Shown: positions 620-29,502, numbered from the stretch's first letter. The stretch: DNA of 30,098 bases from an uncultured Acidiphilium sp. (GCA_964585955.1 CAZPFZ010000001.1:1-30098), one strand, 5' to 3'. Translations and numbers: made by a program. The notes: generated from the sequence alone by a model not told the origin.

Positions 620-2812
620 ATGAAGAAAAAATTAATTGCTTTGGTTGTAGCATTGATGTTTAGTATGTCAATGTTTGCGGGGTGCGGAATGGATACAGAA
701 CAATCAGATATCGTAAAATCAAGCGACATAGAGAGTGCTGTTGGTGGCAACGATTCCCCCCAAGAACATTTACGTCACGTTTACGGTGAGTGGGAAGTTG
801 TAAACGGGGAAATCATAAGAAGATGCGCTTGCGGGGCAACGGAGAAAAAAATTACCGTAACAGAAGTGCCCGGTGCATTGACTTTAACAGCGGATATAAA
901 CGAAAGTGAAAATCTTTCTTTGCTTAAAAAAATCACTATGTATAATGCGGGGACGATAGATCCCATTTCTAATTATGAGCGTGACTTAAACCTTATTGAA
1001 GATCTTAACGCCGAATCATTGCGTATTGATCTTTCTATCGGAAAGGGTGACGGGGGTAGAAATTATACCGGCGATGAATGGATGGTAACCGGTAATGGCG
1101 ACGATTGGGAAAATTATTCATATAATTTTGACCAGCTTGACGGTATAATAGCGCAACTTTTAGAAAAAGACGTGTTGCCATATATGTCTTGGTGCTATAT
1201 TCCCAAGCCTTTGCAAGAAAATCCTAATGATCTAAGTTGGGGCTGGACAAATTTGAACCAAAACCTACCAAATTGGCGTCAAGCTTGGCAAAATTTGCAC
1301 TACAACTATGCAAAACATTATAAGGATGTAGGGTTGCAAATTGGTTATCACGAAATTTATAACGAACCCGATCTATTCGGCGTATTTATGAATTACGGTG
1401 ATTTTCAAAATAGGATATATAACGACATGTATGTATACGGTGCAAGGGGGATTCGCGAAGCCGATCCCGATGCAACCGTCGGCGGACCTGCTTTTGCAAT
1501 TGCTGAAAGTGCAGGCAATACAGGATTTATAGATGTTGTAAAAAATACTAATTCACCTATGGATTTCTTTTCTTTCCATTCTTATATGGACGGAAATACT
1601 TGGCCTAACGAATTGAATTATGTCGGCGATTTAATAGCACGTGACCCTTATTTTTTAACAACAGCTATTCACATTAACGAATTTTCTTGGTTGCATTCAG
1701 AAAATGGCGGTCAATCGGGGTCAAACAGTCAGTTTAATACGTATGTTGGCGGACAAAAAACCCTTTCTGCAATTATGGAAGTTGTAGAGCGTACCGATGT
1801 GCAATGGGCGCATTGGGCACAATTTATGGAATCCACTTGCGGTGACGATCCTTACGGTCTAATTTTTAAAAACGGGCACGTAAAAGCTGCGTATAATGCG
1901 GTAAAAATGTATAACGATATGCCCGTATGGCGGTATAAAGTTAATAAGTCGAGCGAAGACGATAGTGTAAGAGCGGTATGTTCGGCAAATGACGAAAAAA
2001 TAGGATATCTTATTTGGAATACGTCCGGGCGAGAAAAACAGGTTAATGTAAAGTTAGATAATACATATTTTGCAAACGGAACACGTCGTGTGTATCGTAT
2101 TGATAAAAATCACGGAAGTTACAAAGATAATCATTCTGCAGAGCATCTTGTGGCTGAAGAAATAGGCGGTATAGATTTAGAGGAAGGTAATATATGGTCG
2201 GGTACCATTCCCGCAAACGGAGTTGTATATATTACTGTAAACGAAAACGGATATGATGATTTTACAAGTTGGGAAGAACGTCGTACAAATTTTGCTACCG
2301 ACGTAAAAACAAGTTATTATTATGCCGACAGAGCAAAACTTGACAGAGTGCGCGCCGGTAAATCCAGCTATGCTCATTTTGATCGCAACAGTTGGACAAT
2401 GTATCTCTCACAAGGTGATTATAACGATGCGCATGCCGATGCATCGGTTATAGTGAAAAATTTACCCGAAAAGTTTAAAGTGAATTTTAATACAGAAGGG
2501 TATGTTAGAAACATCGATAAAAATTCGGCATTAGCATTCCGTATCGATTTTTACGATGAAGATAGCGGTAAATATAGCAACAGTGTACTTTTCCATAACG
2601 GAATATATAACGATTCGCGCAATGCTTTTCTCGCTCCTTGGGGAACGGCGTGTGCTCCGGATGAAGTTGTAGAATTCGACGGTTCCGAATGTGATATCAA
2701 CATTGCCGACTATGCCCCCGATGGGTGGAATGCAGCAACGGGGAAGGCTCAAATTTCCTTCATTATGCAAAATACAGGGGCTAACACGCGTGCGGCGATC
2801 AGTCTTTATTAA
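620..2812 (+). CDS. Lipoprotein glycoside hydrolase, GH39-like (clan GH-A), with an uncharacterised C-terminal domain
   Basis: Start moved from 503 to ATG 620 (in frame, GGGGAG RBS upstream, gives MKKKLIALVVALMFSMSMFAG-C lipobox). Acid/base motif HEIYNEPD, nucleophile motif IHINEFS, and VGGPAFA and DFFSFHSY as in GH39. Paralogue of 17791-20088. Confidence 0.8.
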   Translation: MKKKLIALVVALMFSMSMFAGCGMDTEQSDIVKSSDIESAVGGNDSPQEHLRHVYGEWEVVNGEIIRRCACGATEKKITVTEVPGALTLTADINESENLSLLKKITMYNAGTIDPISNYERDLNLIEDLNAESLRIDLSIGKGDGGRNYTGDEWMVTGNGDDWENYSYNFDQLDGIIAQLLEKDVLPYMSWCYIPKPLQENPNDLSWGWTNLNQNLPNWRQAWQNLHYNYAKHYKDVGLQIGYHEIYNEPDLFGVFMNYGDFQNRIYNDMYVYGARGIREADPDATVGGPAFAIAESAGNTGFIDVVKNTNSPMDFFSFHSYMDGNTWPNELNYVGDLIARDPYFLTTAIHINEFSWLHSENGGQSGSNSQFNTYVGGQKTLSAIMEVVERTDVQWAHWAQFMESTCGDDPYGLIFKNGHVKAAYNAVKMYNDMPVWRYKVNKSSEDDSVRAVCSANDEKIGYLIWNTSGREKQVNVKLDNTYFANGTRRVYRIDKNHGSYKDNHSAEHLVAEEIGGIDLEEGNIWSGTIPANGVVYITVNENGYDDFTSWEERRTNFATDVKTSYYYADRAKLDRVRAGKSSYAHFDRNSWTMYLSQGDYNDAHADASVIVKNLPEKFKVNFNTEGYVRNIDKNSALAFRIDFYDEDSGKYSNSVLFHNGIYNDSRNAFLAPWGTACAPDEVVEFDGSECDINIADYAPDGWNAATGKAQISFIMQNTGANTRAAISLY

Positions 2813-2884
2813 ATATAAAAAACAACAAATAAAAAAACTTTAAGATATATTTTTGCTTAAAAAAAGAATTAAATCGGAGAAAAT

Positions 2885-4927
2885 ATGAAGTATAATATGC
2901 GTTTTCGCAAAGTATTTGCTTTAATCCTTGCTGTTATTTCAGTAAGTGTAATAATGGGATGCGAGTTTGAAGACAGTGCATCAAATGGTTTGTCCTTGTC
3001 GGCGGGTGATTCTTCATCAATCGAAAACAACGATAGTAGCGATATTATAGATAGCTCTGAATTTGATTCTTCAAGCAGTGGAGATGAACTTGATTCTTCA
3101 AGTGGCGGTTCCGATGTTATAGAACCTATTACGCCACAGCCTACACAGTCAACAATAAAGAATGTTATTTACTTAATTGCAGACGGATTAAGTTCATCAA
3201 CAATAAATCTTGCTCGTGAGCTTAAAGGTGATTCCTTATATTTGGATGAGATTTTGATCGGACAAGAAATGGTATCCACAACTAATTTATCAACGCTAAA
3301 AAATGCGGGAGCCGATGAGTCGTGGAAAATATCCAACACCGATTCTTCATCTTGCGGAACAGCCCTTGCAACCGGTAGAAAGACATATAAAAACGGTCAA
3401 GGACAAATAAGACATGATAACGATCAATATGTTCCGTATGCCAATGACGGTGTAAAAACCGATTGGAAAAACGGTGAACTCGAAAGATTAAGATCTATAA
3501 TAGACTTAGCTCAGGATCAAGGTAAAAAAACAGCTGTTATTACAACAGCGGATATTCTCGATTCTACGCCGTCTGCATTCTATTCTCATTCCGAACGCGG
3601 CTATTGGGATACTATTTATGCTGATTTAAAAGCTTCCGATATCGACGTTTTAGTAGGTACTAACTCATATGCGGGAAATACTTTGTCATCATGGCGACAG
3701 GAATTCGGAGCTCTCGGATATAAAAAAGTAGAATATACGAAAAAAAGCGATTTAGATAAAGTAAATAAAGGCGAAAAATATATTTCGATTGCGGATTCCG
3801 GAAACGGCAATCACGATCCGTTTTGGGATTATAATAATTACCGAGCCGACAATATTCGCATTTTTGAACATTTTTCTAAAACGTTAGAGCTGTTTGAAGA
3901 CGAAGAAGATGGTTTCTTTATTATGTTAGAGGGTGGCGAAATCGATATAGGCGGACATAACGATGAATCACAGCATGCCCTTAGTGAATTATATGCTTTC
4001 GACGAAACTGTAAGGTTAGCATTAGATTTTGCCGCAGTTAGGGATGATACCATGGTTGTAGTTACGGTTGACCACGGGAACAGTCAATTTCATTATAAAA
4101 ACAATGTAAGTGCTGAAAATTTTAATTTAACTTGGACGGATGAAGCGTATTTTTATAATAATTTTGCAACATTTACAAGTTGGATGAAAAATAACGTAAC
4201 TAAAAATTATGACGGTCACACGTTGGAAAACGTTATGTTGGGTTTGTATGTGCCCGATGCAATAGATAATATTTTTGAGGGAAAAAGTAAAATCGAAAAC
4301 ATAGAAATCCCTCGTTATATTGCAAGTCTTTTAAATATAGATATAGATTACGAAAATCGTATTTTTAACGGACTCGAAGTAGAAGAACCGTTCGGTTATA
4401 TTGTTGTCGATTTTGACGAAAATTTACAAATCGGAAAAGATAATGCCGTATCTGCCGTTTCTTATTGGGGCGCAAATACTTCCGGTTGTAGGGCGATAAA
4501 AGCATCATCGGTGGCTTTTCACGATTGTGAAAACATCAAGGGCGATACATGTTATGCATTAAGATGTTTTAATACCAATAATGCAAGCACGGGCATTGCA
4601 ATTACGCTACCTTCGCCAATCGCTATTAAGCAATATAAACTTACATCGCTAACCTTACGTTGTCAAATTAGTTTAGATGCAGTTGATTCTTATCCGATGT
4701 GCCGTTTATATAAAGGTAGCAACGAGATTTTAAATAACCCATCAACCAACGGTGTTTCGTTAGCGCAACATGCAAATTCAAAAGTTGTTGATGTTAATCT
4801 CGGTAATATAGATTTTTCAAAACTTGCCGATTCGGATGGCATTATCCGAAGCTTTACTATTAACATTCGTACAAAGAGTATAGGATACATATATTTAGAT
4901 GAAATTCGCTTTGCGTACGAAATATAA
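2885..4927 (+). CDS. Alkaline phosphatase family lipoprotein with an extra C-terminal beta-rich domain
   Basis: Lipobox VIMG-C and Ser/Asp-rich linker. AP motifs IADGLS, TDSSSCGTALATG (Ser nucleophile), TPSAFYSHSER, LEGGEIDIGGH, VTVDHG and GHT. About 180 aa of extra C-terminal sequence. Confidence 0.88.
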   Translation: MKYNMRFRKVFALILAVISVSVIMGCEFEDSASNGLSLSAGDSSSIENNDSSDIIDSSEFDSSSSGDELDSSSGGSDVIEPITPQPTQSTIKNVIYLIADGLSSSTINLARELKGDSLYLDEILIGQEMVSTTNLSTLKNAGADESWKISNTDSSSCGTALATGRKTYKNGQGQIRHDNDQYVPYANDGVKTDWKNGELERLRSIIDLAQDQGKKTAVITTADILDSTPSAFYSHSERGYWDTIYADLKASDIDVLVGTNSYAGNTLSSWRQEFGALGYKKVEYTKKSDLDKVNKGEKYISIADSGNGNHDPFWDYNNYRADNIRIFEHFSKTLELFEDEEDGFFIMLEGGEIDIGGHNDESQHALSELYAFDETVRLALDFAAVRDDTMVVVTVDHGNSQFHYKNNVSAENFNLTWTDEAYFYNNFATFTSWMKNNVTKNYDGHTLENVMLGLYVPDAIDNIFEGKSKIENIEIPRYIASLLNIDIDYENRIFNGLEVEEPFGYIVVDFDENLQIGKDNAVSAVSYWGANTSGCRAIKASSVAFHDCENIKGDTCYALRCFNTNNASTGIAITLPSPIAIKQYKLTSLTLRCQISLDAVDSYPMCRLYKGSNEILNNPSTNGVSLAQHANSKVVDVNLGNIDFSKLADSDGIIRSFTINIRTKSIGYIYLDEIRFAYEI

Positions 4928-4935
4928 AACCTATG

Positions 4936-4998: not shown

Positions 4999-7320
4999 AT
5001 GATGAAAACGAGAACATTAATGATTATGTTTCTTGCAATGGCAGTAGCTGTTTCTACAGCTTTATGCACGGTAGGGTGCGGGTCAAACGACAATCCACCT
5101 GAATCTAACCCGACATCGGAGCTTCCCGATGAATCGAGCGGTGGCGGAGGACAGTCTTCTCCTACAGAGGAGAAAAAAGAGGTAACAGTCCGTTTTCTTG
5201 TAGATGGTGAAGTTTATCAAGAGATAACCGGTTTAGAAGGTGCAAGAATCACTCTTCCCCAAAAGCAACCCACAAAAGATCATATGACCTTTGTAAAGTG
5301 GGAAGGTTATACCAACGGCACGAGATTTACCGAAAATAGGGATTACAATGCAGTTTTTGAAGATGTGATTTATACTGTAAAATTCACTGACGGCAACACA
5401 ACTGTAAAAACCGTTGAAGGTAAATACGGCGATACGTTTGAAGCACCTGAAAACCTTGCAGACAAACCCGGATATATATTCATGGGGTGGGAAGGTTTCG
5501 ACGCTACCAATTTAGCTATTGGCGGAAATGCCGAATATGCAGCAAACTGGCTTAAAATGAATGTTTCTTACAGTGCAGAAGGTACATATGATAACACTGT
5601 TTTAACAAAAGACAGTATGTTTGCAACCAGCGAAGCAGTTGCTAAATTTGACCTTGTACAAAACACTGAAAACGCTGCAGACGAAGCAAAGAAATTTGAA
5701 GTTAGTCTTGCTCACGACGGTGAATATTTATACGTATATATTTATTCCGAAGATAATGATCAAAACGATGACGACAGATTGTCTTTCTATATTGTGAAAA
5801 ATGGTCAAACCACGACTACTCTTATCGAAACAAAACCCAATCTTGCCGATCCTTACACAAAAGGTAAAGACGCTTGCTCTTTAATTAATGCAGGCAAAGT
5901 AGAAGGCGGATATGCATTAAAGGCAAAAATTGATCTTTCTTCACTTGAAATTAGCGAACAAACATTACGTTTTGGTGTACGCTTCATTGATATGAACAAC
6001 AAAGTTGTTTACCTTAGCAAAGGTGCAACTGCAGATAACGGCGCAACAAAGGTAGATAACGCTGCTAACCTTCCTGTATGGGAAATTGCAGGCGATATTT
6101 CTATAGACGGTGACGATTCCGAATGGGAAAATATTGTAAAAACCGATATACCCGCTAGCGGATTTACCTCTTGGGTAGGCAGTGTTCCTGCCGATTTCGC
6201 TATAAAAGCAGCATTCAAAGCAGACGCTAAAAACTTATATGCTCGTATTGAAGTAAAAGATTCAATACTTGTTGCCGGAACAGATGAAGGTAAAAACGAC
6301 GGTAGTAAGTATGATGGCGACGCTATGCAAATCGCGTTTAACGCAGGTAACGGACGTTTCTTCTATTCCTTCGATTACAGAGGCGACGGAAATCAAGGAT
6401 ATATCATTTGTCAAAACGGCGTAACCAATGAAAATGTTACATTAGTAGGCGCATATTTATATACCAAAAATGTTGAAGGCGGCTGGGCAGCAGAATTAAG
6501 TATTCCTCTTTCAACTATCCTTGGCGATACATTTACCTTTAATGCTGAAAATCCCATTAATTTAAAAGTATTGGTTTGTTACATTGATCGTGACGAAGGC
6601 GAAGGCGCTGTTACAGGTGCATACGGTACGTTCTGTGATTTTGAAGCATGGGGCGACGAAGATGGTATGCCTTTAACATTGAAGGCTGATGGTACATATC
6701 AATTGACTATTCCTTCTAAAGAACCCATTCAACCCGTACAACCTGCAACTCCCGTAGGAATTGCTCCTGTCGCATATGTGGAAAACGCAACTTTTGATGC
6801 AACAAATTTAACAAAAGACGCTCTTTTTGCAAATGCAACCGACATTACTAAATTTCAAAAAGTAGAAGGTAGTGGCGACTTTAGTTATGTTTTAAATCTT
6901 GTACACGATAACAACTATTTATACGTATACATTTTTTCGGCAGATACCGCACAAAACGATACCGATAGAGTAACATTTTACTTTGTTAAAAAAGGTGAAA
7001 CAAAAACTTTATGTGTAGAAACCTATCCCAACAAGGCTGATCCTTATAAAACTAATAAGGATGCTTGTGCAGCAATTATTGCAGGCAAAGTAGAGGGTGG
7101 ATATGCGTTAAAAGCAAAGATTGCTCTTGCCGATATCGAAATTAAAGAAGGCGGCAAAATTAACTTTGGCGTACGTTTGATCAATAATGATAATAATGCA
7201 AATACCATTTACCTTAGCGATGGAGCAACCGCAGATAACGGTGCAACAAAGGTAGATAACGCGGCAAACCTTCCCGAGTATACTTTAACAGATTATAGAT
7301 CAACTACTACTGAGGAATAA
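4999..7320 (+). CDS. Lipoprotein with no recognisable catalytic domain: 2 InlB-B-type repeats + compact CBM9/DOMON-like domain + CBM9-like domain + second compact domain
   Basis: Start moved from 4933 to ATG 4999 or 5002 (GAGGTG RBS). Lipobox TVG-C. Repeats VTVRFLVDGE..PTKDHMTFVKW and YTVKFTDG..KPGYIFMGW. ISIDGDDSEW..NLYARIEVKD..GWAAELSIPL is CBM9-like. Internal duplication at aa level (5554-6081 vs 6760-7281). Confidence 0.7.
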   Translation: MMKTRTLMIMFLAMAVAVSTALCTVGCGSNDNPPESNPTSELPDESSGGGGQSSPTEEKKEVTVRFLVDGEVYQEITGLEGARITLPQKQPTKDHMTFVKWEGYTNGTRFTENRDYNAVFEDVIYTVKFTDGNTTVKTVEGKYGDTFEAPENLADKPGYIFMGWEGFDATNLAIGGNAEYAANWLKMNVSYSAEGTYDNTVLTKDSMFATSEAVAKFDLVQNTENAADEAKKFEVSLAHDGEYLYVYIYSEDNDQNDDDRLSFYIVKNGQTTTTLIETKPNLADPYTKGKDACSLINAGKVEGGYALKAKIDLSSLEISEQTLRFGVRFIDMNNKVVYLSKGATADNGATKVDNAANLPVWEIAGDISIDGDDSEWENIVKTDIPASGFTSWVGSVPADFAIKAAFKADAKNLYARIEVKDSILVAGTDEGKNDGSKYDGDAMQIAFNAGNGRFFYSFDYRGDGNQGYIICQNGVTNENVTLVGAYLYTKNVEGGWAAELSIPLSTILGDTFTFNAENPINLKVLVCYIDRDEGEGAVTGAYGTFCDFEAWGDEDGMPLTLKADGTYQLTIPSKEPIQPVQPATPVGIAPVAYVENATFDATNLTKDALFANATDITKFQKVEGSGDFSYVLNLVHDNNYLYVYIFSADTAQNDTDRVTFYFVKKGETKTLCVETYPNKADPYKTNKDACAAIIAGKVEGGYALKAKIALADIEIKEGGKINFGVRLINNDNNANTIYLSDGATADNGATKVDNAANLPEYTLTDYRSTTTEE

Positions 7321-7512: not shown

Positions 7513-8616
7513 ATGAATGCAAAAAAAATTATTATATTGATTCTTGCCATTGTTTCAATTGTTGCTTTTGCCGCGTTTGGTGGATGCAAAAAAGGCAACG
7601 AAAGTTCAATCGATTCGAATACTGAAAATTCTCAATATACAGATGGGGAATCTTCAATTGAGCCGACTCAAACAGTAACGGTGCGTTTTCTTGTTGATGG
7701 CGAAGTTTACCAAGAAGTAAGCGGAACGGTTGGAGCAAGAATTGTTGCCCCTAAAACAAAACCGTCAAAAGATCATATGACTTTTGTCAAATGGGACGGC
7801 TACACAAACGGCGCAAGATTTTCCGAAGATGCCGATTTTAACGCTGTATTCGAAGATATAATTTATAAAATTACCTTTGTTAGTCTTGGTAAAACAGTGA
7901 CTACTGTAGAAGGCAAATACGGCGATACTTTCCAAGTTCCTACAACCCCCACAGCCGGTTCAGGCTATACATTTATCGGTTGGAACGGATTAGATACATC
8001 GAATCTTATTATAGAAGATGATGCCGAATACGTTGCACAATGGGAATATGCAGCTCCGAGCATAGCATATGCTACAGGCTCGTTTGATGCCTCTACATTA
8101 GAAAAAGATGCAATATTCAACAACGCAACTACGGTAACTAATTTCCAAATGGTACAAAACACCGAAAATGCCGCCGATGCTAATAAAGCATATACGGTTA
8201 GCCTTGTAAACGACGGTACTTATTTGTATGTTTATATTTTTTCTGCCGACACGGAACGTAACGATGACGATAGACTTTCATTCTATATTGTAAAGAAAGA
8301 TTCTACCGAAACTTCTAATGTTCAAACATATCCCAACAAATCCGAGCCTTATAGCACAAATAAGGATGCTTGTGAAGCTATTAACGTAGGTAAAGTGGAA
8401 GGCGGATACGTTTTAAAAGCAAAAATAGCACTTTCTACATTAGAAATCAGCGACGATAACAAGATTGGCTTTGGCGTACGTTTTATCGATATGAACAATA
8501 AAGTTGTTTATCTCAGCGAAGGTTCTATTGTTGACGATTCGACAAAAACAAAAACGGGTAAGGCAATCAATCTTCCTAAAATGCAGCTTGCAAGCGCGAC
8601 TACAAATAACGATTAA
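7513..8616 (+). CDS. Lipoprotein: 2 InlB-B-type repeats + compact CBM9/DOMON-like domain (paralogue of the N-terminal part of 4999-7320)
   Basis: Start moved from 7444 to ATG 7513 (AGGAG RBS). Lipobox FGG-C. Shares VTVRFLVDGEVYQE, KDHMTFVKW, VQNTENAAD, NDDDRLSFYIVK and FGVRFIDMNNKVVYLS with the upstream gene. Confidence 0.75.
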   Translation: MNAKKIIILILAIVSIVAFAAFGGCKKGNESSIDSNTENSQYTDGESSIEPTQTVTVRFLVDGEVYQEVSGTVGARIVAPKTKPSKDHMTFVKWDGYTNGARFSEDADFNAVFEDIIYKITFVSLGKTVTTVEGKYGDTFQVPTTPTAGSGYTFIGWNGLDTSNLIIEDDAEYVAQWEYAAPSIAYATGSFDASTLEKDAIFNNATTVTNFQMVQNTENAADANKAYTVSLVNDGTYLYVYIFSADTERNDDDRLSFYIVKKDSTETSNVQTYPNKSEPYSTNKDACEAINVGKVEGGYVLKAKIALSTLEISDDNKIGFGVRFIDMNNKVVYLSEGSIVDDSTKTKTGKAINLPKMQLASATTNND

Positions 8617-14150: not shown

Positions 14151-14176
14151 AAAAAACGGCTTAAATGCCGTTTTTT
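14151..14176. terminator. Bidirectional terminator between the convergent CotH and AraC genes
   Basis: AAAAAACGGC-TTAAAT-GCCGTTTTTT. Confidence 0.8.
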
Positions 14177-15029: not shown

Positions 15030-15080
15030 TGTATTCCTTCTTTTTGTTTGTTAACTTAAAAGAGTACAAACACATTTCTA

Positions 15081-15109: not shown

Positions 15110-15192
15110 TATTTTCAGACAATTTAGTTCAAATATGCAAAAAAGCGTTTTAAAAATGTTACGAATGTACACCGTATAGTAATAAAAATGCA

Positions 15193-15221
15193 TTTACACG
15201 CTTTTGTATAAGTGGTATAAT
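15193..15221 (+). promoter_or_regulatory. Candidate sigma-A promoter P1 of the right arm
   Basis: TTTACA-17 nt-TATAAT with TGn extension, overlapped by the inverted repeat TTTTGTATA-N10-TATACAAAA. Confidence 0.55.
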
Positions 15222-15346
15222 ATACAAAAAGAATTAAGGTCGTTGTTGTGTCTGTTATGAAACAAAACAACATTGATTTCACCGTAAACAAGGCAAATAA
15301 GTAAGATTTGTGATCCGAATGTATACATATTCGTTTTTAATGTGTA

Positions 15347-15375
15347 TTTACATGCAAAGTAAGGTATGCTATAAT
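15347..15375 (+). promoter_or_regulatory. Candidate sigma-A promoter P2 of the right arm
   Basis: TTTACA-17 nt-TATAAT with TGn extension. Confidence 0.6.
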
Positions 15376-15550
15376 AGAGTCGAAAAGGGAAGTGTATAAT
15401 AAAAACTATGCAATGTCTAAAAAGTTGCAATCAAGTTTGTTAATGTAAACCACCGCTTTTTTCGAAAAAAAAACGGCATAGCAATAATTAATATTGGGCT
15501 TTGATTCGCTAAAGCGAATTAAAAATAATTTATTATTAAAGGAGCAAAAA

Positions 15551-20125: not shown

Positions 20126-21880
20126 ATGATAAAATGTTACCAAAAAGGATATTTTAGACCACAATTTGTCCGTAAACATTGGATAGATATGAACGGGGTT
20201 TGGAATTTTGTTTTTGACGACGAAAACATAGGTGAAAAGGTCGGATTTTTTAAACAATTTCCGACCAATTCCCTAAAAATTAACGTACCGTATTCATATG
20301 AAACACCTGCAAGCGGTATTGGCGACGAAAGCGTTCACAATGTGGTTTGGTATCAAAAAATATTCAAAGCAGAAGAAATTGAGACTAGAAAAAGGTACAT
20401 TATCAATTTTGAGGGTGCTGATTATGTAACAAAAGTATGGGTTAACGGTATTTTTATCGGTAGCCATATTGGTGGAAACTGTCGTTTTAGTTTTGATATA
20501 ACAAACGCAATTCTATCGAATAAAGAAAACAATATGATTGTAAAATGCGAAGATTCGCTTGATACAACTCAACCGAGAGGAAAACAGCGTTGGCTTAAAG
20601 ATAGTTTTGGCTGTTGGTATATTCAAACAACGGGAATTTGGAAGCCGGTATGGAGCGAAATTGTTTCCGAAACTCGTTTAGATTATGTAAAAATTACCCC
20701 GGATATAGACACCGAGAGCGTCCGTTTTGACTATACTGTAACAGATATTCGAAAGAATGTAGAGATTGAAACGAAGATTTCGTTTGAAGATGTTTTTGTT
20801 ACAAGCTCTCGTTATTCGGTAAAAAATAAGAATTCTTGGCAAAGCTTAGATATTCGTTGTTCGGCATTTGATTTTAAGGTAAAATGTTGGAACCCTGATT
20901 TTCCTAATCTTTATGACGTTGAATTTATCGTTTATGAAGACGGAAAGGAAGTAGACAGGGTGGGCTCTTATTTCGGTATGCGTAAAATTCAAGCCGACGA
21001 AAAGGGAATTCGTTTGAATAACTGTCCATTGTACCAAAAACTTGTTCTTGCTCAAAATTATTGGACAAAAACAGGTTATACCATGCCAGACGAAGATGCC
21101 GCAAAAAAAGATATAGCAATTGCTAAAGCTGCGGGCTTTAACGGTTTGCGTATCCATCAAAAAATCGAGGACGAACGTTTTTTACTTCATTGCGATGTGG
21201 ATGGTATATTTGTTTGGGCGGAGTTCCCCGCAGCATACGAATTTAACTATACCGCAGTTAAAAATTTAACAGATGAATGGATGGATGCTGTAAAACAGCA
21301 ATATAATCATCCTTCAATTATTACCTGGGTTCCTTTTAACGAAAGTTGGGGACTACCTAATATTTTTACACAAAAAACGCAGCAAGAATTCACTTGCGGT
21401 ATTTATAGTTTAACTAAATCTTTTGATTCAATGCGACCTGTTATTACCAACGATGGTTGGGAACACACTTGTTCCGATATTATTACGTTGCATGATTACG
21501 ATGGCGCAGGTGAGCATATGTTGCCTCGATATAAAAATGGATTAAAAGATATTCTCGAAAACCGTGTGGCTCATGGGCAGTATAAATTTGCCTTTGCGCA
21601 AGGTTATGCGTATAAAGGTCAACCAATTATTGTTAGTGAATATGGCGGCATTGCTATGGAAGGTGGCGAAGGTTGGGGGTATAACGGTAGGGTGAAAGAC
21701 GGAGAGTCGTTGATTAAAAAATATGACGATTTAACATCTGCTATAAAAAGCATGGAAAACGTTTGTGGCTACTGTTATACGCAACTTACAGATCTTTATC
21801 AAGAGATCAACGGTTTGGTTGATATGGATAGAAATCCCAAAGTGGATTTAGCAATTATAAAATCAATTAATGATAAATAA
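20126..21880 (+). CDS. Glycoside hydrolase family 2, cytoplasmic; specificity not assignable
   Basis: LNG.WNF-like start (MNGVWNF), FEGADYVTKVWVNG, FGMRKI, GFNGLRIHQK, acid/base WVPFNESWG and nucleophile VSEYGG; no signal peptide. Confidence 0.88.
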   Translation: MIKCYQKGYFRPQFVRKHWIDMNGVWNFVFDDENIGEKVGFFKQFPTNSLKINVPYSYETPASGIGDESVHNVVWYQKIFKAEEIETRKRYIINFEGADYVTKVWVNGIFIGSHIGGNCRFSFDITNAILSNKENNMIVKCEDSLDTTQPRGKQRWLKDSFGCWYIQTTGIWKPVWSEIVSETRLDYVKITPDIDTESVRFDYTVTDIRKNVEIETKISFEDVFVTSSRYSVKNKNSWQSLDIRCSAFDFKVKCWNPDFPNLYDVEFIVYEDGKEVDRVGSYFGMRKIQADEKGIRLNNCPLYQKLVLAQNYWTKTGYTMPDEDAAKKDIAIAKAAGFNGLRIHQKIEDERFLLHCDVDGIFVWAEFPAAYEFNYTAVKNLTDEWMDAVKQQYNHPSIITWVPFNESWGLPNIFTQKTQQEFTCGIYSLTKSFDSMRPVITNDGWEHTCSDIITLHDYDGAGEHMLPRYKNGLKDILENRVAHGQYKFAFAQGYAYKGQPIIVSEYGGIAMEGGEGWGYNGRVKDGESLIKKYDDLTSAIKSMENVCGYCYTQLTDLYQEINGLVDMDRNPKVDLAIIKSINDK

Positions 21881-21891: not shown

Positions 21892-23220
21892 ATGAATAAA
21901 TTTTTAAAGAGAATTTTCTCGTTTGCAATGGTTGCATGTCTTGCTTCCGGTTTAGGTGCTTGTGGCGGAAAACCTGATAATGGCTCCGCTCCTTCTTCAG
22001 CTGCTACCGGAAATGCAATAGTCATTTCGTTTTGGAATCCTATTACCGGACCTGATGCTGCGTATATGCAAACACTTGTTGCTGATTTTAACAAAGAATA
22101 TAAAGGACAATTTTATGTTAATTCCGATGCGCAGGCAGAAGCAAGTCATTATCAACGTATAACAACAAGCTTTACCGATCAATCAACTGCAGATCTTTGC
22201 CTCGTGCATAAATCGAGAATTTCTTCTTTCCAACGCGCCGGCAAGTTGCGTTCTATGACTAGCATGTTGGAAGGCATAGGTATTAGCGCGGACGATTACG
22301 TAGGCGATAGTTGGACTGCTTGCGAAATTGATGGCGAAATGTATGCTACACCATACGATGTATTACCCACGCTTCTTTTCTATAACAGAAAGCTTATTCC
22401 TGCCGGATATACCGAAGCAGATATTCTTTCAGAAAACTTTACTATTGATAAAATGTTAGAAATGATGCAAGCTGCATACAAGCACGCACCTATGACAACT
22501 AAGAGAGTTTACGGTATGGCATTTAACTATTCGTATACCGAGCCTATGTTCTTAAGTTTTCTCAATCAACAGGGCGCTGCCGCAGTAGATGCCGCAAATC
22601 CCACCGTACCTACTTTTGCAAACGAAAAGGGTTACGCCGCTGCCGAAGCTGTAAAACGTATTCCCTTCACTTTGAAAGACGGAAATAAAGTTTGTTCAGA
22701 AAGTGGTTCCGATCACTTGAATGTATTTACTCAGGGTAGAGCATTGTTTACTATTGATGGTATTTGGTCAGCTCCTTCCGCATGTGAAAAAACAGAAAAG
22801 GTAGATGCAGGCGTTGCCCTTCTTCCCAAGATGAACGCGGATGTTGCAAGAAATGTTGCTGCAGACGGTCACGTTTTTGTAACTTTTGATAACAAAAAAG
22901 TTTCTACCGAAAAAGACCAAGCAATCGCTACATTTATGAATTATCTTATTGAACACAGCGAATATTGGTGCCAAGGCGGAAAAGTAGCCGCCAGAGCAGA
23001 CAGTGTGAACAACGAAGAGTATCAAGCACTTGAATGGGGCTATCTTTCCGGTTTACTTGAAAATATCATTTCGCCGGTAAAAACATATACCTATGATACA
23101 ATTACTAATCCTATCGGTGTAGAAGTTGCTAAACTTTGCGAAGGAATAGAAACTGATGTTCAAAAAGCAGTAAATAAAGCTGCGCAAGACGCAAAACAGG
23201 AAGCTGAAGCATTGCAGTAA
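21892..23220 (+). CDS. Carbohydrate ABC transporter substrate-binding lipoprotein
   Basis: AGGAG RBS and lipobox LGA-C. ISFWN..GPD, DGEMYATP..V.PTLLFYNRKL and F.QGRALFTIDGIW are typical of family 1 sugar-binding proteins; followed by two permeases. Confidence 0.9.
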   Translation: MNKFLKRIFSFAMVACLASGLGACGGKPDNGSAPSSAATGNAIVISFWNPITGPDAAYMQTLVADFNKEYKGQFYVNSDAQAEASHYQRITTSFTDQSTADLCLVHKSRISSFQRAGKLRSMTSMLEGIGISADDYVGDSWTACEIDGEMYATPYDVLPTLLFYNRKLIPAGYTEADILSENFTIDKMLEMMQAAYKHAPMTTKRVYGMAFNYSYTEPMFLSFLNQQGAAAVDAANPTVPTFANEKGYAAAEAVKRIPFTLKDGNKVCSESGSDHLNVFTQGRALFTIDGIWSAPSACEKTEKVDAGVALLPKMNADVARNVAADGHVFVTFDNKKVSTEKDQAIATFMNYLIEHSEYWCQGGKVAARADSVNNEEYQALEWGYLSGLLENIISPVKTYTYDTITNPIGVEVAKLCEGIETDVQKAVNKAAQDAKQEAEALQ

Positions 23221-23274
23221 TTCCTTTTTGGTGCATATAGGCAAAAATAAATCCAAAAAAAGGGGGTACCACCT

Positions 23275-24180
23275 GTGAATAAGAGTAAGAGTGGTGGGTT
23301 AAACAGTCCTAAGGAACAACTTAAGGCGTTAATCTTTATCGGTCCGCAGCTTATCTTTTTCTGTGTATTTTTCATTATTCCGTTTTTCTTTGGTATAATC
23401 ATCAGTTTTACAAAGTGGGACATGATGGGGCCGATGAAGTTTGAAGGATTGGGAAATTTTGCACAAATATGGGATATAAAAGGGGCTATCGAAAAGGTAA
23501 ACGTATTTTCAGAGAATTTTTTCAACGGCTTAAAATACACTCTCTATTATACCGTGGTTATGGTGCCGCTCCTTATTGTTGTGCCCATGGCATTTGCGTT
23601 GGTATTAAATAAACTAAAAGTTGGTAGGGGTATCTTTCAGGCTATCCTATATGCCCCTTCTTTATTATCGGTAGCCACAGTTGCTCTTACTTGGCGCTGG
23701 TTAGTTGATATGGATAACGGTGTGTTTAATAACATATTTTTTCCAATGAACCCTGTCAATTTTGTCCGCGATCACGCATGGCTTTGTATTTTTATGCTTA
23801 CATTGTGGTCAGGCGTAGGTGGCAATCTTGTAATTTTCTTGGCGGGGCTTTCCGGAATACCGGAAACATATTATGAAGCTGCTGATGTTGACGGAGCTAA
23901 CGCTATTGTTAAATTTTGGTATATTACTATTCCCGAAATGAGCTTTCAGCTTTTATATACAACGATTATGGGTACCATCGGTGCATTCAACGTATTTGGT
24001 CAACCTTATATGTTTGGTACTCCGCCGGGACAAGAAGTTCTCATGCAGTATATTCACGAATATGCTTTCGGTATGGCTACCCCCATGGCAGGTATGGCGA
24101 GTGCAATGTCCGTATCTTTGGGGTTGATCATTTCCGTATTTAGCGCGGTTCAGTTTAAACTGATGGAAGCTAAGGATTAA
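23275..24180 (+). CDS. Carbohydrate ABC transporter permease (MalF/UgpA type)
   Basis: GTG start, multiple hydrophobic helices, EAA loop IPETYYEAADVDGAN. Confidence 0.93.
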   Translation: MNKSKSGGLNSPKEQLKALIFIGPQLIFFCVFFIIPFFFGIIISFTKWDMMGPMKFEGLGNFAQIWDIKGAIEKVNVFSENFFNGLKYTLYYTVVMVPLLIVVPMAFALVLNKLKVGRGIFQAILYAPSLLSVATVALTWRWLVDMDNGVFNNIFFPMNPVNFVRDHAWLCIFMLTLWSGVGGNLVIFLAGLSGIPETYYEAADVDGANAIVKFWYITIPEMSFQLLYTTIMGTIGAFNVFGQPYMFGTPPGQEVLMQYIHEYAFGMATPMAGMASAMSVSLGLIISVFSAVQFKLMEAKD

Positions 24181-24191
24181 GGGGGGACAAT

Positions 24192-25055
24192 ATGAAAAAA
24201 TTAAAAGCTCGGAGCCCTTACCAAATTATAACGGTTATTCTACTTATTGTAATTTGTATTGCATGGCTGTTCCCTTTATATTTTATTTTAATGACCTCTC
24301 TTCGTACAGATGCATCTTTTAGGCAAGAAACCTTTAGCGAGGCATTCGGTATATTATTATTTCCCAAAGCTCCTACGTTTGACACTTATAAAACGGTATT
24401 AGATACTACTACGGGTTCGCCTGTTTTACAGTGGTTTTTAAATTCGCTAACGGTTGCCGTTTCAAGCACAATACTTACAGTGTTTGTAAGCGCTATGGCT
24501 GCATTCGGTTATGCTCGTATGCAATTTAAAGGAAAGAATATTTTGTTTTCATTTTTGATGTTTACGATGATGATTCCCGGTGTTATAAACCTCGTTCCGT
24601 CCTACAAAATTGTATCAATGTTAGGTTTAAAAAATAATTTGTTAGCGTTGATTTTACCGGGGCTAAGCGGCGTAGGAAACGTATTTCTTATCAGACAGTT
24701 CTTTTATTCGGTCCCTAAAGATTTCGACGAAGCCGCAAAAATTGACGGTGCAGGATATATTAGGATCTTTTTCCAAATTTTGTTACCGCAAATAGTTCCG
24801 GTATTGATGGTTGTAGCGCTCAATTCTTTCTTAGGTAGTTGGAATGATCTTTTGTGGCCCATGATTGTAATGGACGATACGTCAAAACGTACGCTTACCG
24901 CAGGTCTTAGCGTTATCAATGGCGTGTATGATACAGAATATGCAAGTAAAATGGCGTCGACGGTTATTTCGGCAGTGCCCGTACTTTTGATCTATATTTT
25001 TGCGCAAAAATATTTATTACAGGGCATTTCGTTATCGTCCGGCGTAAAAGGTTAA
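24192..25055 (+). CDS. Carbohydrate ABC transporter permease (MalG/UgpE type)
   Basis: WFLNSLTVA, AAFGYAR, EAA loop VPKDFDEAAKIDGAG, SWNDLLWPMI. Confidence 0.93.
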   Translation: MKKLKARSPYQIITVILLIVICIAWLFPLYFILMTSLRTDASFRQETFSEAFGILLFPKAPTFDTYKTVLDTTTGSPVLQWFLNSLTVAVSSTILTVFVSAMAAFGYARMQFKGKNILFSFLMFTMMIPGVINLVPSYKIVSMLGLKNNLLALILPGLSGVGNVFLIRQFFYSVPKDFDEAAKIDGAGYIRIFFQILLPQIVPVLMVVALNSFLGSWNDLLWPMIVMDDTSKRTLTAGLSVINGVYDTEYASKMASTVISAVPVLLIYIFAQKYLLQGISLSSGVKG

Positions 25056-25123: not shown

Positions 25124-26701
25124 ATGAAATATCAAGTACAAAACCCCATTTTAAGAGGTTTTCACCCCGATCCTTGTATGATCTATGTAAATGGCACATA
25201 TTATATTGCCACATCCACGTTTGAATATTACCCCGGCGTTAAAATTTCCGCCTCGGAAGATCTTGCCAATTGGCGTACTGTTTCTTATCCGTTAAAAGAG
25301 CTTCGTTTGCTTGATATGCGCGGTGATGTTGCTTCAACGGGTATTTGGGCGCCTGCATTGTCGTATGCGGACGGTAAATTCTGGTTAATTTTTACCAATC
25401 AAAGACAATGGGTAGACGAACATTTAAAAGATACCGAAAATTACCTTACCACTTGCGAAACAATCGACGGAAAATGGAGCGATCCCATAAAGCTTAACGG
25501 TAGTGGTTTTGATCCGTCACTTTTCCATGACGACGATGGTAAAAAATATCTTGTTAACATGCGTTGGGATTACCGTTATGAAAACGATGGTGTACGTTTT
25601 AGGGGTATTTTACTGCAAGAATACGATCATTCGCAAAAGAAACTTATCGGAAAACCCAAAGTTATTTTTGAAGGAACCGAAAGAAAAATTACCGAAGGAC
25701 CTCACATTTTTAAAAAAGATGGATATTATTATCTTTTGACTGCAGAAGGCGGTACAGGTTTAACTCACAGTGCAACACTTGCGCGCAGTCGCAATATCGA
25801 AGGACCTTACGAATTGCATCCGAATAAACATATTATTACAGCATGGGAAACTGATTGTTATTTGCAAAAAGCGGGACACGCAAGTCTTTGTCAAGGTAAA
25901 AACGGAGAGTGGATAATGGCGCACCTTTGCGGTAGACCGTTACCTGACGGACGTTGTATGCTCGGACGCGAAACAGCTTTACAAAATGTGGAATGGCACG
26001 AGGACGGTTGGTGTTATTTAACAAACGGCACAATGAACCCCTCCGACACTTTTGAAGCTTTTGCGCCCGCGAAAGAACGCAAAAAAGAATGGCTTTATGA
26101 ATTTAACGGCGAACCTTTCGATATAGATATGATGACCTTGCGTCAACCGTTTGGTGATGACGTATTTGATCAAAAATCGCGTAGCGGATGGCTTCGCATA
26201 AGGGGACAAAAGAGTTTACTTGCTTTGCAAGATCAATCGCTTTTGTTGCGCCGCCAAGAAGCTTTTGCCTTTGAAGCTGAAACAATGCTTGAGTTTGACC
26301 CCGAGTCTTTTAATCATTGGGCAGGCCTTTCCTATCGTTATAGCGAAAATAACCAGCATTATTTGTATGTTTCTTATGATGATGCAACAAATTCGAGAGA
26401 GTTGTTAAAAATTACTTACGATAACAGCAAGTTTAAGTTGGAAAGAATTACAAAATTGCCCGAAAAGGGCGGAGTATGGATGAAAGTTTGCGTGGATCAT
26501 GCAGACGGTCAGTTTTACTATTCACTCGACGGCAAAAAATATGAAAAAGCAGGTGATGCTTTTGATGCATCCAAGCTTAGCGATGAATACAATAGACCTT
26601 TGGCATTTACAGGACCGTATGTAGGTATTGGCTGTCAAGATTTTTCAGATGCGAAAAAAACAGCGGATTTTAAGTATCTACTTTATAAAGAATTAGATTA
26701 A
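25124..26701 (+). CDS. GH43 beta-xylosidase / arabinofuranosidase (XynB-like, with C-terminal beta-sandwich), cytoplasmic
   Basis: NPILRGFHPDP (base Asp), GIWAPALSY, GFDPSLFHDDDG (pKa Asp), TEGPHIFKKDGYYYL (acid Glu), RRQEAF and FTGPYVG; no signal peptide. Confidence 0.92.
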   Translation: MKYQVQNPILRGFHPDPCMIYVNGTYYIATSTFEYYPGVKISASEDLANWRTVSYPLKELRLLDMRGDVASTGIWAPALSYADGKFWLIFTNQRQWVDEHLKDTENYLTTCETIDGKWSDPIKLNGSGFDPSLFHDDDGKKYLVNMRWDYRYENDGVRFRGILLQEYDHSQKKLIGKPKVIFEGTERKITEGPHIFKKDGYYYLLTAEGGTGLTHSATLARSRNIEGPYELHPNKHIITAWETDCYLQKAGHASLCQGKNGEWIMAHLCGRPLPDGRCMLGRETALQNVEWHEDGWCYLTNGTMNPSDTFEAFAPAKERKKEWLYEFNGEPFDIDMMTLRQPFGDDVFDQKSRSGWLRIRGQKSLLALQDQSLLLRRQEAFAFEAETMLEFDPESFNHWAGLSYRYSENNQHYLYVSYDDATNSRELLKITYDNSKFKLERITKLPEKGGVWMKVCVDHADGQFYYSLDGKKYEKAGDAFDASKLSDEYNRPLAFTGPYVGIGCQDFSDAKKTADFKYLLYKELD

Positions 26702-26716: not shown

Positions 26717-28033
26717 ATGGAAAAATTTAAAAATATTCCTCAAATAAAATACGAGGGAGCCGATAGTAAAAATCCGTTAGCATTTAAATATTACGATGCC
26801 GATAGAGTGATTATGGGTAAAAAAATGAAGGAACACCTTCCTTTTGCAATGGCGTGGTGGCATAATCTTTGCGCTACGGGAACAGATATGTTCGGTCGCG
26901 GTGTTGCAGATAAATCTTTTGGTGCACAAGAAGGCACTATGGAACATGCAAAAGCTAAAGTAGATGCCGGATTTGAATTCATGCAAAAGCTTGGCATAGA
27001 ATATTTTTGTTTTCACGATGTAGATATTGTACCCGAAGCAGATGATATTAAGGAAACTAATCGCCGTTTGGATGAAATTTCCGATTATATCTTAATAAAA
27101 ATGAAACAAACAGGCATAAAATGTTTGTGGGGAACAGCAAATATGTTTGGTAATCCACGTTTTTGTAACGGTGCAGGATCTTCAAATAGTGCAGATGTAT
27201 TCGCTTTTGCCGCAGCACAGGTAAAAAAGGCGTTGGATATAACTGTAAAACTCGGCGGAAAAGGTTATGTTTTTTGGGGCGGCAGAGAAGGTTATGAAAC
27301 ATTGCTTAATACCGACGTAAAATTCGAGCAAGAAAACATTGCTCGTCTTATGAAAATGGCTGTAACGTACGGTAGAAGTATCGGCTTTACCGGTGATTTC
27401 TATATTGAGCCCAAGCCGAAGGAACCTATGAAACATCAATACGATTTTGATGCAGCAACAGCAATCGGATTCCTTCGCCAATATGGCTTAGATAAAGATT
27501 TTAAATTGAATATTGAGGCAAATCATGCAACGCTTGCGGGGCATACATTCCAGCACGACCTTCGCATTTCCGCAATTAACGGTATGCTTGGTTCGATTGA
27601 TGCAAATCAAGGGGATTATTTGCTTGGTTGGGATACCGATGAATTTCCGTTTGATGTATACACGGCAACAATGTGTATGTATGAAGTTTTAAAAGCCGGT
27701 GGGCTTACCGGCGGATTTAATTTTGACGCAAAAAACCGCCGTCCTTCTTACACAGTAGAAGATATGTTTGAAGGGTATATTCTCGGCATGGATACATTTG
27801 CACTCGGCTTAATAAAGGCTGCGGCTTTAATCGAAGACGGCAGAGTTGACGAATTTATCAAAAAACGCTATGCAAGTTATAGGGAAACCGAAATAGGTAA
27901 AAAGATTTTGTCGAACGAAACTAATTTGCAAGAATTATCCGCTTATGCTGAAAAGCTCGGTGCCCCTGAACTTCCCGGTAGCGGTAAACAAGAATATCTC
28001 GAAACAGTTGTCAATAGTGTATTATTTAAATAA
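26717..28033 (+). CDS. xylA: Xylose isomerase (class II)
   Basis: [49 protein letters not shown]. Confidence 0.98.
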
Positions 28034-28035
28034 CT

Positions 28036-29502
28036 ATGAATACGTATATCGGAGTTGATTTGGGTACAAGCGGCGTAAAAATTCTGCTTGTGGCTGCCAA
28101 TGGCGAAATTTTATTTGAAATAACGGAAAGTTATCCCATATATTACCCACAAGACGGATGGAGCGAACAATCGCCTGAAGATTGGCTAAATGCAGTAAAA
28201 AAAGGCTTAGAACGGTTGTTTGCCGATGGTATGCATAAAAGAACGGATGTTAAAGGTTTGTCCTTTGGCGGTCAAATGCACGGTTTGGTATTGCTTGATA
28301 AAAACGATGAAGTTATTCGTCCTGCAATACTTTGGAATGATGGTAGAACGCAAAAGCAGACTAACTACCTTAATGAAATTATAGGGCGAGAAAATCTTTC
28401 TAAGTATACTGCAAATATTGCATTTGCGGGCTTTACGGCACCAAAAATTTTATGGGTAAAGCAAAATGAGCCCGAAAATTTTGCACGTATTGCGAAAATA
28501 TGCTTACCCAAGGATTATATTGCATATAAGTTAACAGGCGTTTTTTCAACAGATTATTCAGATGCAAGCGGTATGCTTCTTCTTGATGTAAAAAACAAAT
28601 GCTGGTCTAAGGAAATGTGTGAAATTTGTTCCATCAAAGAAGAATGGCTTCCCACGTTGTATGAAAGTTATGAGCAAACAGGAAAGCCTTTAAGCGAATA
28701 TCTGTTACCTAATGCAATTGTAACAGCCGGGGCAGGCGATAATGCCGCTGCCGCTATCGGTACGGGAACTGTAAAAAACGGTGATTGTAATATTTCGCTC
28801 GGTACTAGTGGTACTGTATTTGTTGCAGAGGATAATTTTTCGGCAGATAAAATGAATGCATTGCATGTATTTGCTCACGCTACGGGCAAATGGCATTTTA
28901 TGGGGTGCATTTTGTCGGCGGCAAGTGCGAATAAATGGTGGATGGAAGATATTCTCGGTTCTAATAATTACGATATACAAATTGATGGCATAGATGAAAA
29001 ACTTGGCGAAAACAGGGTGTACTTTCTGCCATATTTAATGGGCGAAAGAAGTCCACATAACGATGTAAACGCAAGCGGCGTATTTATAGGTATGCGTCCT
29101 GATACAACAAAAGAAGAAATGAGCCTTGCAGTTTTAGAAGGTGTTTCGTTTGCTCTTCGTGATTGCTTAGAAGTCGTAAAAGAGAACGGTATTGTAATTA
29201 ACAAAACAAATATTTGCGGGGGCGGCGCAAAGAGTAAACTTTGGAGAAAAATTATTGCAAATGTTTTAAATGTAGAAGTTTGTTCTTTAAAAACAGAACA
29301 AGGTCCCGCCTATGGGGCGGCAATGCTTGCAATGGTTGGAGCGTGTGAGTATATTTCAGTGGAAAAAGCATCAGCTGCACTTATAAAAATTGATTATTCA
29401 ATTTTACCTCAATCCGAAATTGTACAAAAATATGAAAAACGCTATGCTGTTTTTAAAACGTTATATCCTGCATTAAAGAATATCTTTTCAAATATTTCAT
29501 AA
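28036..29502 (+). CDS. xylB: Xylulokinase (FGGY family)
   Basis: IGVDLGTSGVK, SFGGQMHG, AILWNDGR, GAGDNAAAA, SLGTSG and PYLMGERSP; immediately downstream of xylA. Confidence 0.95.
   Translation: MNTYIGVDLGTSGVKILLVAANGEILFEITESYPIYYPQDGWSEQSPEDWLNAVKKGLERLFADGMHKRTDVKGLSFGGQMHGLVLLDKNDEVIRPAILWNDGRTQKQTNYLNEIIGRENLSKYTANIAFAGFTAPKILWVKQNEPENFARIAKICLPKDYIAYKLTGVFSTDYSDASGMLLLDVKNKCWSKEMCEICSIKEEWLPTLYESYEQTGKPLSEYLLPNAIVTAGAGDNAAAAIGTGTVKNGDCNISLGTSGTVFVAEDNFSADKMNALHVFAHATGKWHFMGCILSAASANKWWMEDILGSNNYDIQIDGIDEKLGENRVYFLPYLMGERSPHNDVNASGVFIGMRPDTTKEEMSLAVLEGVSFALRDCLEVVKENGIVINKTNICGGGAKSKLWRKIIANVLNVEVCSLKTEQGPAYGAAMLAMVGACEYISVEKASAALIKIDYSILPQSEIVQKYEKRYAVFKTLYPALKNIFSNIS

Follow-up and report, generated by a model that had tools for sequence, protein, structure and literature searches.

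The main new result of this study is the synteny of a gene for a non-catalytic lipoprotein carrying modules of carbohydrate-binding module family 9 (CBM9) and a gene for a lipoprotein that resembles glycoside hydrolases of family 39 (GH39-like). The two genes, g09 and g10 (the latter also called GH39b), lie side by side in a stretch of 30,098 nucleotides filed under an uncultured Acidiphilium sp. (GCA_964585955.1 CAZPFZ010000001.1:1-30098; hereafter the window, meaning the whole stretch that was analysed), within a locus that extends from position 620 to 29,502. Wherever the flanking sequence sufficed, a g09-type gene was found directly upstream of a GH39b-type gene. This holds for eight independent loci (the window, L009/L012, L010/L013, L011/L014/L022, L015, L026, L027 and L028), and likewise for L031. 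Across the loci with the pair, identity to g09 falls as low as 33%, and in some of them only 3–13 bases separate the g09-type gene from the GH39b-type or importer gene. Judged from gene order, a g09-type gene appears to be an obligate companion of the gene for the GH39b-type enzyme.

In most loci the pair is followed by a group III GH2 gene, the binding protein and two permeases of a CUT1 ABC importer, and a GH43 gene (a GH43_11 beta-xylosidase). Orthologues of xylA and xylB come after the GH43 gene in L010, and sister loci add GH51 or GH78 neighbours. Co-conservation also extends to the left arm of the locus. The first-pass annotation, made from this DNA alone, had named a left arm not co-conserved with the GH39 and ABC genes as grounds for rejecting its proposal. 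The comparison showed instead that the left arm and binding proteins recur with GH39-like, ABC and GH43 genes, so that this ground falls away. Locus L031 retains both arms around the AraC gene, in the order GH39a, g06-type, phosphatase-like, g04-type, AraC (minus strand), g09, GH39b, GH2 and ABC genes. A metagenome-assembled genome (MAG) from reindeer (L015 plus L008) holds g09, GH39b, GH2, ABC, GH43, GH39a, g05 and g06. In genome G272, from another family of the order, the genes lie on two contigs, one with GH39a, the phosphatase-like gene and a gene for an X-module protein, the other with the right arm. Furthermore, L004 combines g03, g04, g05 and g06 with the AraC gene, GH39a orthologues adjoin CBM9 genes in L008, L010, L021 and L031, and g06 has orthologues in P0134 and in P0147, the 817-residue protein of L031.

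A locus contains between one and five CBM9 genes, and the array of the window is the largest seen. From this distribution, the window probably represents an enlarged form of a gene set that is rare yet conserved; the other four CBM9 proteins would be a lineage-specific expansion. The GH39-like gene is indeed patchy: a search of 16 other genomes of the genus did not find it, and of 401 genomes sampled across the order, only 3 carry it. A scan of metagenomes with the g09 alignment added four loci, three of them of known type. A tyrosine integrase gene flanks L010 (353-1768), which is consistent with a patchy distribution.

AraC orthologues with 44–64% identity occupy the same position in L004, L010, L011 and L031. 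At L009:9003-9944 and L028:2883-3869, the gene between the g09-type and GH39b-type genes encodes an HTH_5/HTH_20 (ArsR-type) regulator; the sequenced flank of L009 contains no AraC gene, and L028 is too short to tell. Possibly, the regulators have been swapped in these two loci.

The five enzyme-free proteins g03, g04, g05, g06 and g09 are paralogues. Their only family matches in Pfam and NCBIfam are Flg_new (the InlB B-repeat) and CBM9_1; as previously annotated, these databases revealed no catalytic domain, cohesin, dockerin or SLH domain in any of the five. All five likewise lack an LPXTG signal. Scanned in whole proteins or singly, seven modules exceeded the curated threshold of CBM9_1 (PF06452; 23.4 bits): the middle module of g03 (33.3 bits), the X module of g04 (26.0), the single module of g05 (72.8), and the N- and C-terminal modules of both g06 (93.5 for the whole protein, 29.4 for the N-terminal module alone) and g09 (90.3 and 32.4, respectively). 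The two X copies in g03 are 56–57% identical to the g04 copy, which is their sole link to CBM9_1. Against profiles of the Protein Data Bank (PDB), the X module reached structure 1i82 at E 0.07, and an hhalign comparison with the CBM9 profile aligned 27 columns at a probability of 3%. The X modules are therefore best described as weakly CBM9_1-like. They are also rare, with 4 homologue clusters among 5.8 billion proteins. The middle module of g09 (120 residues) is a generic immunoglobulin (Ig)-like sandwich. Hence, the earlier count of about ten CBM9/DOMON-like domains was fair in number, but the X modules resemble CBM9 weakly and the g09 middle module is merely Ig-like. Similarly, the linkers reported as acidic are present, but they are rich in S, G, N, D and E rather than uniformly acidic.

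The full-size modules proved to be true CBM9 relatives in profile, model and Foldseek comparisons. A profile of the g05 family matched 1i82, the CBM9-2 module of Thermotoga maritima Xyn10A, over its full length (E 2.4e-17). The AlphaFold2 (AF2) model of g05 (pLDDT 72) had 1i82 as its top Foldseek match (E 2e-11), with 7nwn also at the top and the fold cousins BACUNI_03838 and ethylbenzene dehydrogenase gamma behind them; for both predicted models searched, the top matches were 1i82 and 7nwn/7nwo. In sequence and predicted fold, the full-size modules are thus CBM9; in the binding site they agree with that family only in part.

In characterised CBM9 modules, an aromatic clamp (Trp71/Trp175 in TmCBM9-2, Tyr89/Trp191 in CBM9.3) binds cello-, xylo- and xylogluco-oligosaccharides at their reducing end, and the known ligands are chain ends of beta-1,4-glucan and xylan (PMC8280721). 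At the aligned clamp positions, g05 and the C-terminal module of g06 have Trp plus Phe, the N-terminal module of g06 has Trp plus Trp, and the C-terminal module of g09 has His plus Trp. The same four modules carry Glu at the first polar position; the second is Arg, but Lys in the N-terminal module of g06. A true CBM9 fold, four clamps and co-conservation with the core genes together make a non-catalytic glycan-binding role, analogous to that of surface glycan-binding proteins (SGBPs), reasonable.

CBM9 had been assumed to occur normally as an appendage of xylanases. This does not hold for the g05-type subfamily. An exhaustive homologue search with the g05 CBM9 module matched 445 clusters, and in 57 of the best 60 no catalytic domain was present; the other 3 carried GH10, GH5 or pectate-lyase-like domains. 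Tails of the type IX secretion system (T9SS) occurred in 6 of these 60. Stand-alone CBM9_1 proteins and lipoprotein display are thus the local norm. The specific conserved feature is the pair of CBM9 lipoprotein and GH39-like protein.

The lipid-tethered complement agrees with what had been described earlier, nine lipoproteins plus one C-terminally anchored protein. Lipoboxes were recognised by eye and by regular expression in the nine proteins starting at 620, 2885, 4999, 7513, 8685, 12048, 15551, 17791 and 21892. By regular expression, 8 of the 18 open reading frames (ORFs) on the contig have a lipobox, whereas the proportion across the genome is 8% (binomial P ~3e-5). The processing enzymes Lgt (E 5e-32) and LspA (E 1e-33) are encoded on contig C51. 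Given the lipobox cysteines and both enzymes, the nine proteins are predicted to be lipoproteins. Two of them, the alkaline-phosphatase-like g02 and the CotH protein g07, had not been named before.

The tenth protein, g06, starts with a type-I signal peptide and finishes in a hydrophobic, Cys-containing tail whose last residues are KKKRG. This tail (window positions 11840-11945) consists of a G-C-x-x-S-like Gly/Cys motif, ~19 hydrophobic residues and a Lys/Arg cluster. The same type of tail ends CBM9_1 homologues of quite different lengths (P0006, P0136, P0137, P0147, P0166, P0167, P0185 and P0202), and no C-terminal sorting model in NCBIfam matched it at E up to 0.1. In sortase-poor Clostridia, the g06-type tail is a candidate for a signal of sorting or anchoring that is not yet catalogued.

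Lipid tethering had been presented as a trait of this locus, which our genome-wide survey does not bear out. The genome encodes ~103 lipobox ORFs of at least 150 residues, 35 of which have at least 600 residues (the largest 3,453), so that tethering is its default mode of display. Most of these proteins carry S/G/D/E-rich linkers, and Flg_new repeats occur in ~14 large proteins of the genome. Two further loci have the same layout of a CBM9_1 lipoprotein and an importer. On contig C21 (L018:335-11320), a lipoprotein of 1,703 residues with CBM9_1 and five CarboxypepD_reg repeats has an ABC importer and a GH43 lipoprotein as neighbours. On contig C4 (L019:159-7617), CBM9_1 is combined with a GDSL esterase domain in a lipoprotein of 1,194 residues, which lies beside another ABC importer. 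This shared layout points to a genome-wide design rule.

The GH39-like proteins g01 (GH39a) and g10 are 46% identical to each other, and their Pfam GH39 scores of 60.3 and 47.2 bits exceed the cut-off of 26. N210, E211 and P212 (the NEP acid/base motif) and E349 (the nucleophile Glu of INE) are invariant in 32 homologues. With the family match and the catalytic pair in place, g01 and g10 would belong to family GH39 and clan GH-A. Both proteins end in a domain of ~190 residues (window positions 2261-2812 and ~19450-20085), which matched nothing in Pfam at E up to 1 and is kept across the 32 aligned homologues, Bacteroidota included. The GH39-like homologues comprise at least 139 clusters, every one of them unnamed, from Firmicute MAGs and from Bacteroidota, where they bear T9SS tails.

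The window is the complete contig C1 of MAG G000, which measures 1.54 Mb in 228 contigs and is 79.6% complete. Near-identical DNA is present in metagenomes of animal gut and faeces, and all of its holders are DNA metagenomes. The closest loci in named records belong to a Candidatus Scatosoma sp., an uncultured Christensenella sp., a Eubacteriales MAG and the reindeer Clostridia MAG. The host is an uncultured, walled, monoderm and sortase-poor Clostridia bacterium of the animal gut, whose relatives are named Christensenella and Candidatus Scatosoma. A wall-less, Mollicutes-like cell was considered as a cause of the lipid tethering and rejected: penicillin-binding proteins are encoded in G000 and in 14 of its 15 congeners, and hence the cell is walled. 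No sortase was found in the 15 congeners, the genome itself gave a weak partial match alone, and LPXTG-like tails are absent across the whole genome. A GH10 gene is encoded elsewhere in the same genome.

The window contains 18 genes, all except g08 on the plus strand (see the list below). The reading of ORFs together with Pfam and NCBIfam matches bore out the gene set and coordinates given by the first-pass annotation. The locus appears to comprise two transcription units, the left one ending at the hairpin at 14151-14176 and the right one starting at the promoter-like sites at 15193 and 15347.

Features of the window, with coordinates in nucleotides from its first position; Flg_new is the InlB B-repeat and X the weakly CBM9_1-like module
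Feature	Coordinates	Strand	Evidence and remarks
g01, GH39-like lipoprotein (GH39a) with C-terminal domain of ~190 residues	620..2812	+	Pfam GH39 E 2e-16; lipobox FAGC
g02, alkaline-phosphatase-superfamily lipoprotein	2885..4927	+	Pfam Alk_phosphatase E 2.8e-37; lipobox IMGC
g03, non-catalytic lipoprotein	4999..7320	+	lipobox TVGC; linker, two Flg_new, X, CBM9_1, X
g03, two Flg_new	5185-5490
g03, first X	5554-6081
g03, CBM9_1	6106-6594
g03, second X	6760-7281
g04, non-catalytic lipoprotein	7513..8616	+	linker, Flg_new, one X (8053-8583); Pfam Flg_new E 1.8e-8, CBM9_1 E 9.8e-6; lipobox FGGC
g05, non-catalytic lipoprotein	8685..9767	+	linker, Flg_new, one full CBM9 module; CBM9_1 E 4e-20; lipobox MAAC
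g06, non-catalytic protein with C-terminal tail	9792..11945	+	signal peptide, CBM9 with large insert, linker, Flg_new, CBM9 (56% identical to g05), hydrophobic tail
g07, CotH-family lipoprotein with beta-rich C-terminal part	12048..14123	+	Pfam CotH E 1.8e-25; lipobox FSSC
Hairpin with T runs on either side, between convergent g07 and AraC gene	14151..14176		likely two-way terminator
g08, AraC-family regulator, divergent from g09	14181..15029	-	Pfam HTH_18, HTH_AraC, AraC_binding
Divergent control region	15030..15550	+	two extended -10 promoter-like sites (15193-15221, 15347-15375), consensus matches only
g09, core CBM9 lipoprotein	15551..17644	+	lipobox VAGC; residues: linker, InlB-B 58-129, DOMON/CBM9_1-like 133-332, Ig-like ~335-455, full CBM9 461-689
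g10, GH39-like lipoprotein (GH39b)	17791..20088	+	Pfam GH39 E 1.9e-12; lipobox FAAC
g11, cytoplasmic GH2 of group III (GH2_19/18 type)	20126..21880	+	7xyr E 1.8e-87, 9j6n E 9e-50; NE motif retained
g12-g14, solute-binding lipoprotein and two permeases, CUT1-type sugar ABC importer	21892..25055	+	Pfam SBP_bac_1/8, BPD_transp_1; lipobox LGAC (binding protein, 21892)
g15, cytoplasmic GH43 beta-1,4-xylosidase with GH43_C2	25124..26701	+	Pfam E 8e-96; 1yrz E 9e-154; 2exh E 1e-144
g16, xylose isomerase (xylA), and g17, xylulokinase (xylB)	26717..29502	+	Pfam
Partial ORF at contig end	29657-30097		no family match in Pfam at E up to 1

The locus contains no ATPase gene for the ABC importer. Pfam, searched at E up to 1, yielded no usable match for the C-terminal parts of g01, g02 and g07. 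In g02, a D-S-S-S motif stands at the position of the PhoA nucleophile. Phosphatase-like lipoproteins of the g02 type, with a C-terminal part of ~225 residues and 63% identity, also lie beside GH39a at L021:851-2926 and L031:7842-9878. CotH is missing from the other Firmicute loci that we compared. A metagenome locus of the T9SS type (L030) has, within 20 kb, a CotH gene (2823-4985), a GH39-like gene whose product is 45% identical to g01, GH43 with GH43_C2, and GH2. A connection between exported CotH proteins and the glycan system may have gone unrecognised.

Our preferred reading, which we consider fairly probable, is that the window holds an accessory and patchily distributed Gram-positive polysaccharide utilization locus (gpPUL) for a glycan containing xylose and arabinose, with CBM9 proteins acting in trans. 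It builds on domain identities, folds, clamp conservation, synteny and genome-wide lipoprotein display, all of them observed here. The two surface GH39-like lipoproteins would cut a plant glycan. Our best guess for the substrate is arabinoxylan, or arabinoxylo-oligosaccharides released by others. Clues come from g15, a typical xylan beta-1,4-xylosidase, from g11, which is nearest to GH2_19/18, from xylA and xylB at the operon end, and from GH51 and GH78 in the sister loci. The five enzyme-free proteins would provide CBM9 modules in trans, tethered to the membrane by lipids (one of them through its C-terminus), with low-complexity linkers and InlB-B repeats lifting the modules off it. For the four modules with a retained clamp, the likeliest ligands are chain ends, either of the glycan itself or of what is cleaved from it, and bound material would be kept close to the GH39-like enzymes and the importer. 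Fragments would then be imported by the binding protein and ABC importer, and trimmed in the cytoplasm by the group III GH2 (of furanosidase type) and the GH43 beta-xylosidase, both of which lack a signal peptide; xylose would enter metabolism through XylA and XylB. The AraC regulator would control at least the right-hand operon.

Several observations weigh against this reading. The clamp residues are missing in five or six of the ten modules (the N-terminal module of g09, the middle module of g03 and the three X modules), and these modules may bind something else, or nothing. The solved structures nearest to g10 are GH39 beta-xylosidases at E ~1e-5 only, far from characterised enzymes, and a structure search found no close or informative solved relative of the binding protein. 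The substrate is deduced from cytoplasmic enzymes only; like the substrate, glycan binding, surface exposure and co-regulation are elements that we infer. A k-mer comparison of the promoter regions 235-620 and 15030-15550 for a shared operator gave AT-rich chance matches only. With 360 residues, g05 exemplifies lipoproteins that may be too short to extend past the wall. The CotH and phosphatase-like proteins have no place in the model. For the membrane-tethered glycan-capture layer that had originally been proposed, the balance is accordingly mixed: CBM9 relatives, four clamps and co-conservation with GH39, ABC and GH43 genes speak for it, but half of the modules lack the binding residues. A bolder version would see the g09-type and GH39-like pair as a two-gene surface depolymerase, in which a chain-end-binding CBM9 in trans replaces appended CBMs. 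The GH39-like family would then be a new endo-acting or processive hemicellulase, and the five-gene array an amplified capture and retention layer, a lipoprotein-only and sortase-free counterpart of the SGBPs of Bacteroidota. As a whole, we regard this version as doubtful.

An alternative explanation might be that the CBM9 proteins serve chiefly to attach the cell, as adhesins, to plant particles, host mucus or other microbes rather than to supply the importer. Surface proteins of adhesin type typically carry InlB-B/Flg_new repeats, which recur in the ~14 large proteins mentioned above, the stalk-like multi-module models weakly resemble adhesin ectodomains, and a copy number of one to five between loci would be expected of surface-interaction genes. 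However, the tight adjacency of g09-type genes to GH39-like and importer genes in eight loci argues for a role inside a catabolic pathway, and attachment to the substrate can coexist with nutrient capture. We therefore consider a purely adhesive function unlikely. The same adjacency and near-coupled spacing would also fit a g09-type protein that belongs structurally to the GH39-like enzyme, as its partner or subunit, and positions, stabilises or activates it in a surface complex, with free glycan binding secondary. That several g09 modules lack the sugar-clamp residues points in this direction, whereas the C-terminal module keeps a CBM9-like site. A complex prediction for residues 45-765 of GH39b with residues 455-697 of g09 scored 0.00, which counts neither for nor against binding. 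To a partner role of this kind we assign a low probability.

Equally improbable, in our view, is a locus directed at a microbial glycan, such as a fungal or bacterial polymer containing galactofuranose (Galf), xylose or phosphate, that is recognised by the CBM9-like proteins. Group III GH2 enzymes do include beta-D-galactofuranosidases, the exported phosphatase-like protein is conserved in three loci, and CotH occurs both here and near the GH39-like gene of L030. Yet the GH43 enzyme is a typical xylan beta-1,4-xylosidase, xylA and xylB lie in the operon, GH51 and GH78 genes occur in sister loci, and the characterised ligands of CBM9 are chain ends of beta-1,4-glucan and xylan. Finally, the modules might be cofactor domains of the DOMON type (for haem or quinone) that serve extracellular electron transfer, or else cryptic enzymes. 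In DOMON haem domains the axial ligands are Met/His or Met/Lys. The alignment of the g05 family contains no invariant Met or His among its 38 invariant columns, which argues against a haem site of this type and leaves such a role very unlikely indeed.

How Gram-positive bacteria of the gut capture glycans at their surface is known in much less detail than the Sus paradigm of Bacteroidota. The conserved pair of CBM9 lipoprotein and GH39-like protein is a defined unit that can be assayed directly, and this could assign an activity to a widespread but unannotated GH39-like family. Loci with one, three or five binding proteins form a natural series on what extra copies add. In addition, the locus offers evidence that small-genome, sortase-poor Clostridia display their entire extracellular glycan apparatus as lipoproteins.

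In the literature searched, this gene set is nowhere described, in line with the earlier statement that no described system is known to have this composition. The definition of a gpPUL applies, however, and non-catalytic binding proteins have precedents in Ruminococcus bromii; the locus is neither a new kind of system nor a new mechanism. Like the gpPULs of gut Firmicutes (Sheridan et al. 2016; PMC5320581), it clusters a regulator (AraC), an ABC importer (binding lipoprotein and two permeases), extracellular and cytoplasmic glycoside hydrolases (two GH39-like enzymes, GH2 and GH43) and catabolic genes. It differs from them in its GH39-like extracellular enzymes, in one to five non-catalytic CBM9 proteins, and in the phosphatase-like and CotH proteins.

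The GH39-like enzymes share with GH39 beta-xylosidases (Geobacillus XynB, 1w91/2bs9; Caulobacter, 4ekj) a Pfam match above threshold, the NEP motif and the nucleophile Glu. In contrast to those enzymes, which they match at E ~1e-5, they are exported as lipoproteins (as T9SS cargo in Bacteroidota) and have an extra C-terminal domain. The CBM9 modules of GH10 xylanases (Thermotoga maritima Xyn10A CBM9-2, 1i82; Caldicellulosiruptor kristjansonii CBM9.3, 7nwn) are appended to an enzyme, whereas those of the window reside in separate lipoproteins with InlB-B repeats, clamp-less variants and an extra insert of ~20–30 residues, and their binding is predicted.

Non-catalytic CBM proteins on a Gram-positive surface are known from Sas6 and Sas20 of R. 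bromii (PMC9112005), and Sas6 (7uwu) was a weak multi-domain structural match. Like these proteins and the SusE/F-type SGBPs, the five proteins of the window are enzyme-free, multi-module beta-sandwich proteins that accompany a degradative machinery. The likeness to SusE/F put forward in the first-pass annotation holds as a functional analogy built from unrelated parts, but not as membership: there is no kinship in sequence or fold, SusC and SusD are absent, the host is monoderm, and the folds are CBM9 and InlB-B. Anchoring differs as well, by lipobox in a monoderm cell here, as an outer-membrane lipoprotein in SusE/F and by dockerin in the Sas proteins, and the modules are CBM9 rather than CBM26/74 (Sas) or of the SusE/F type.

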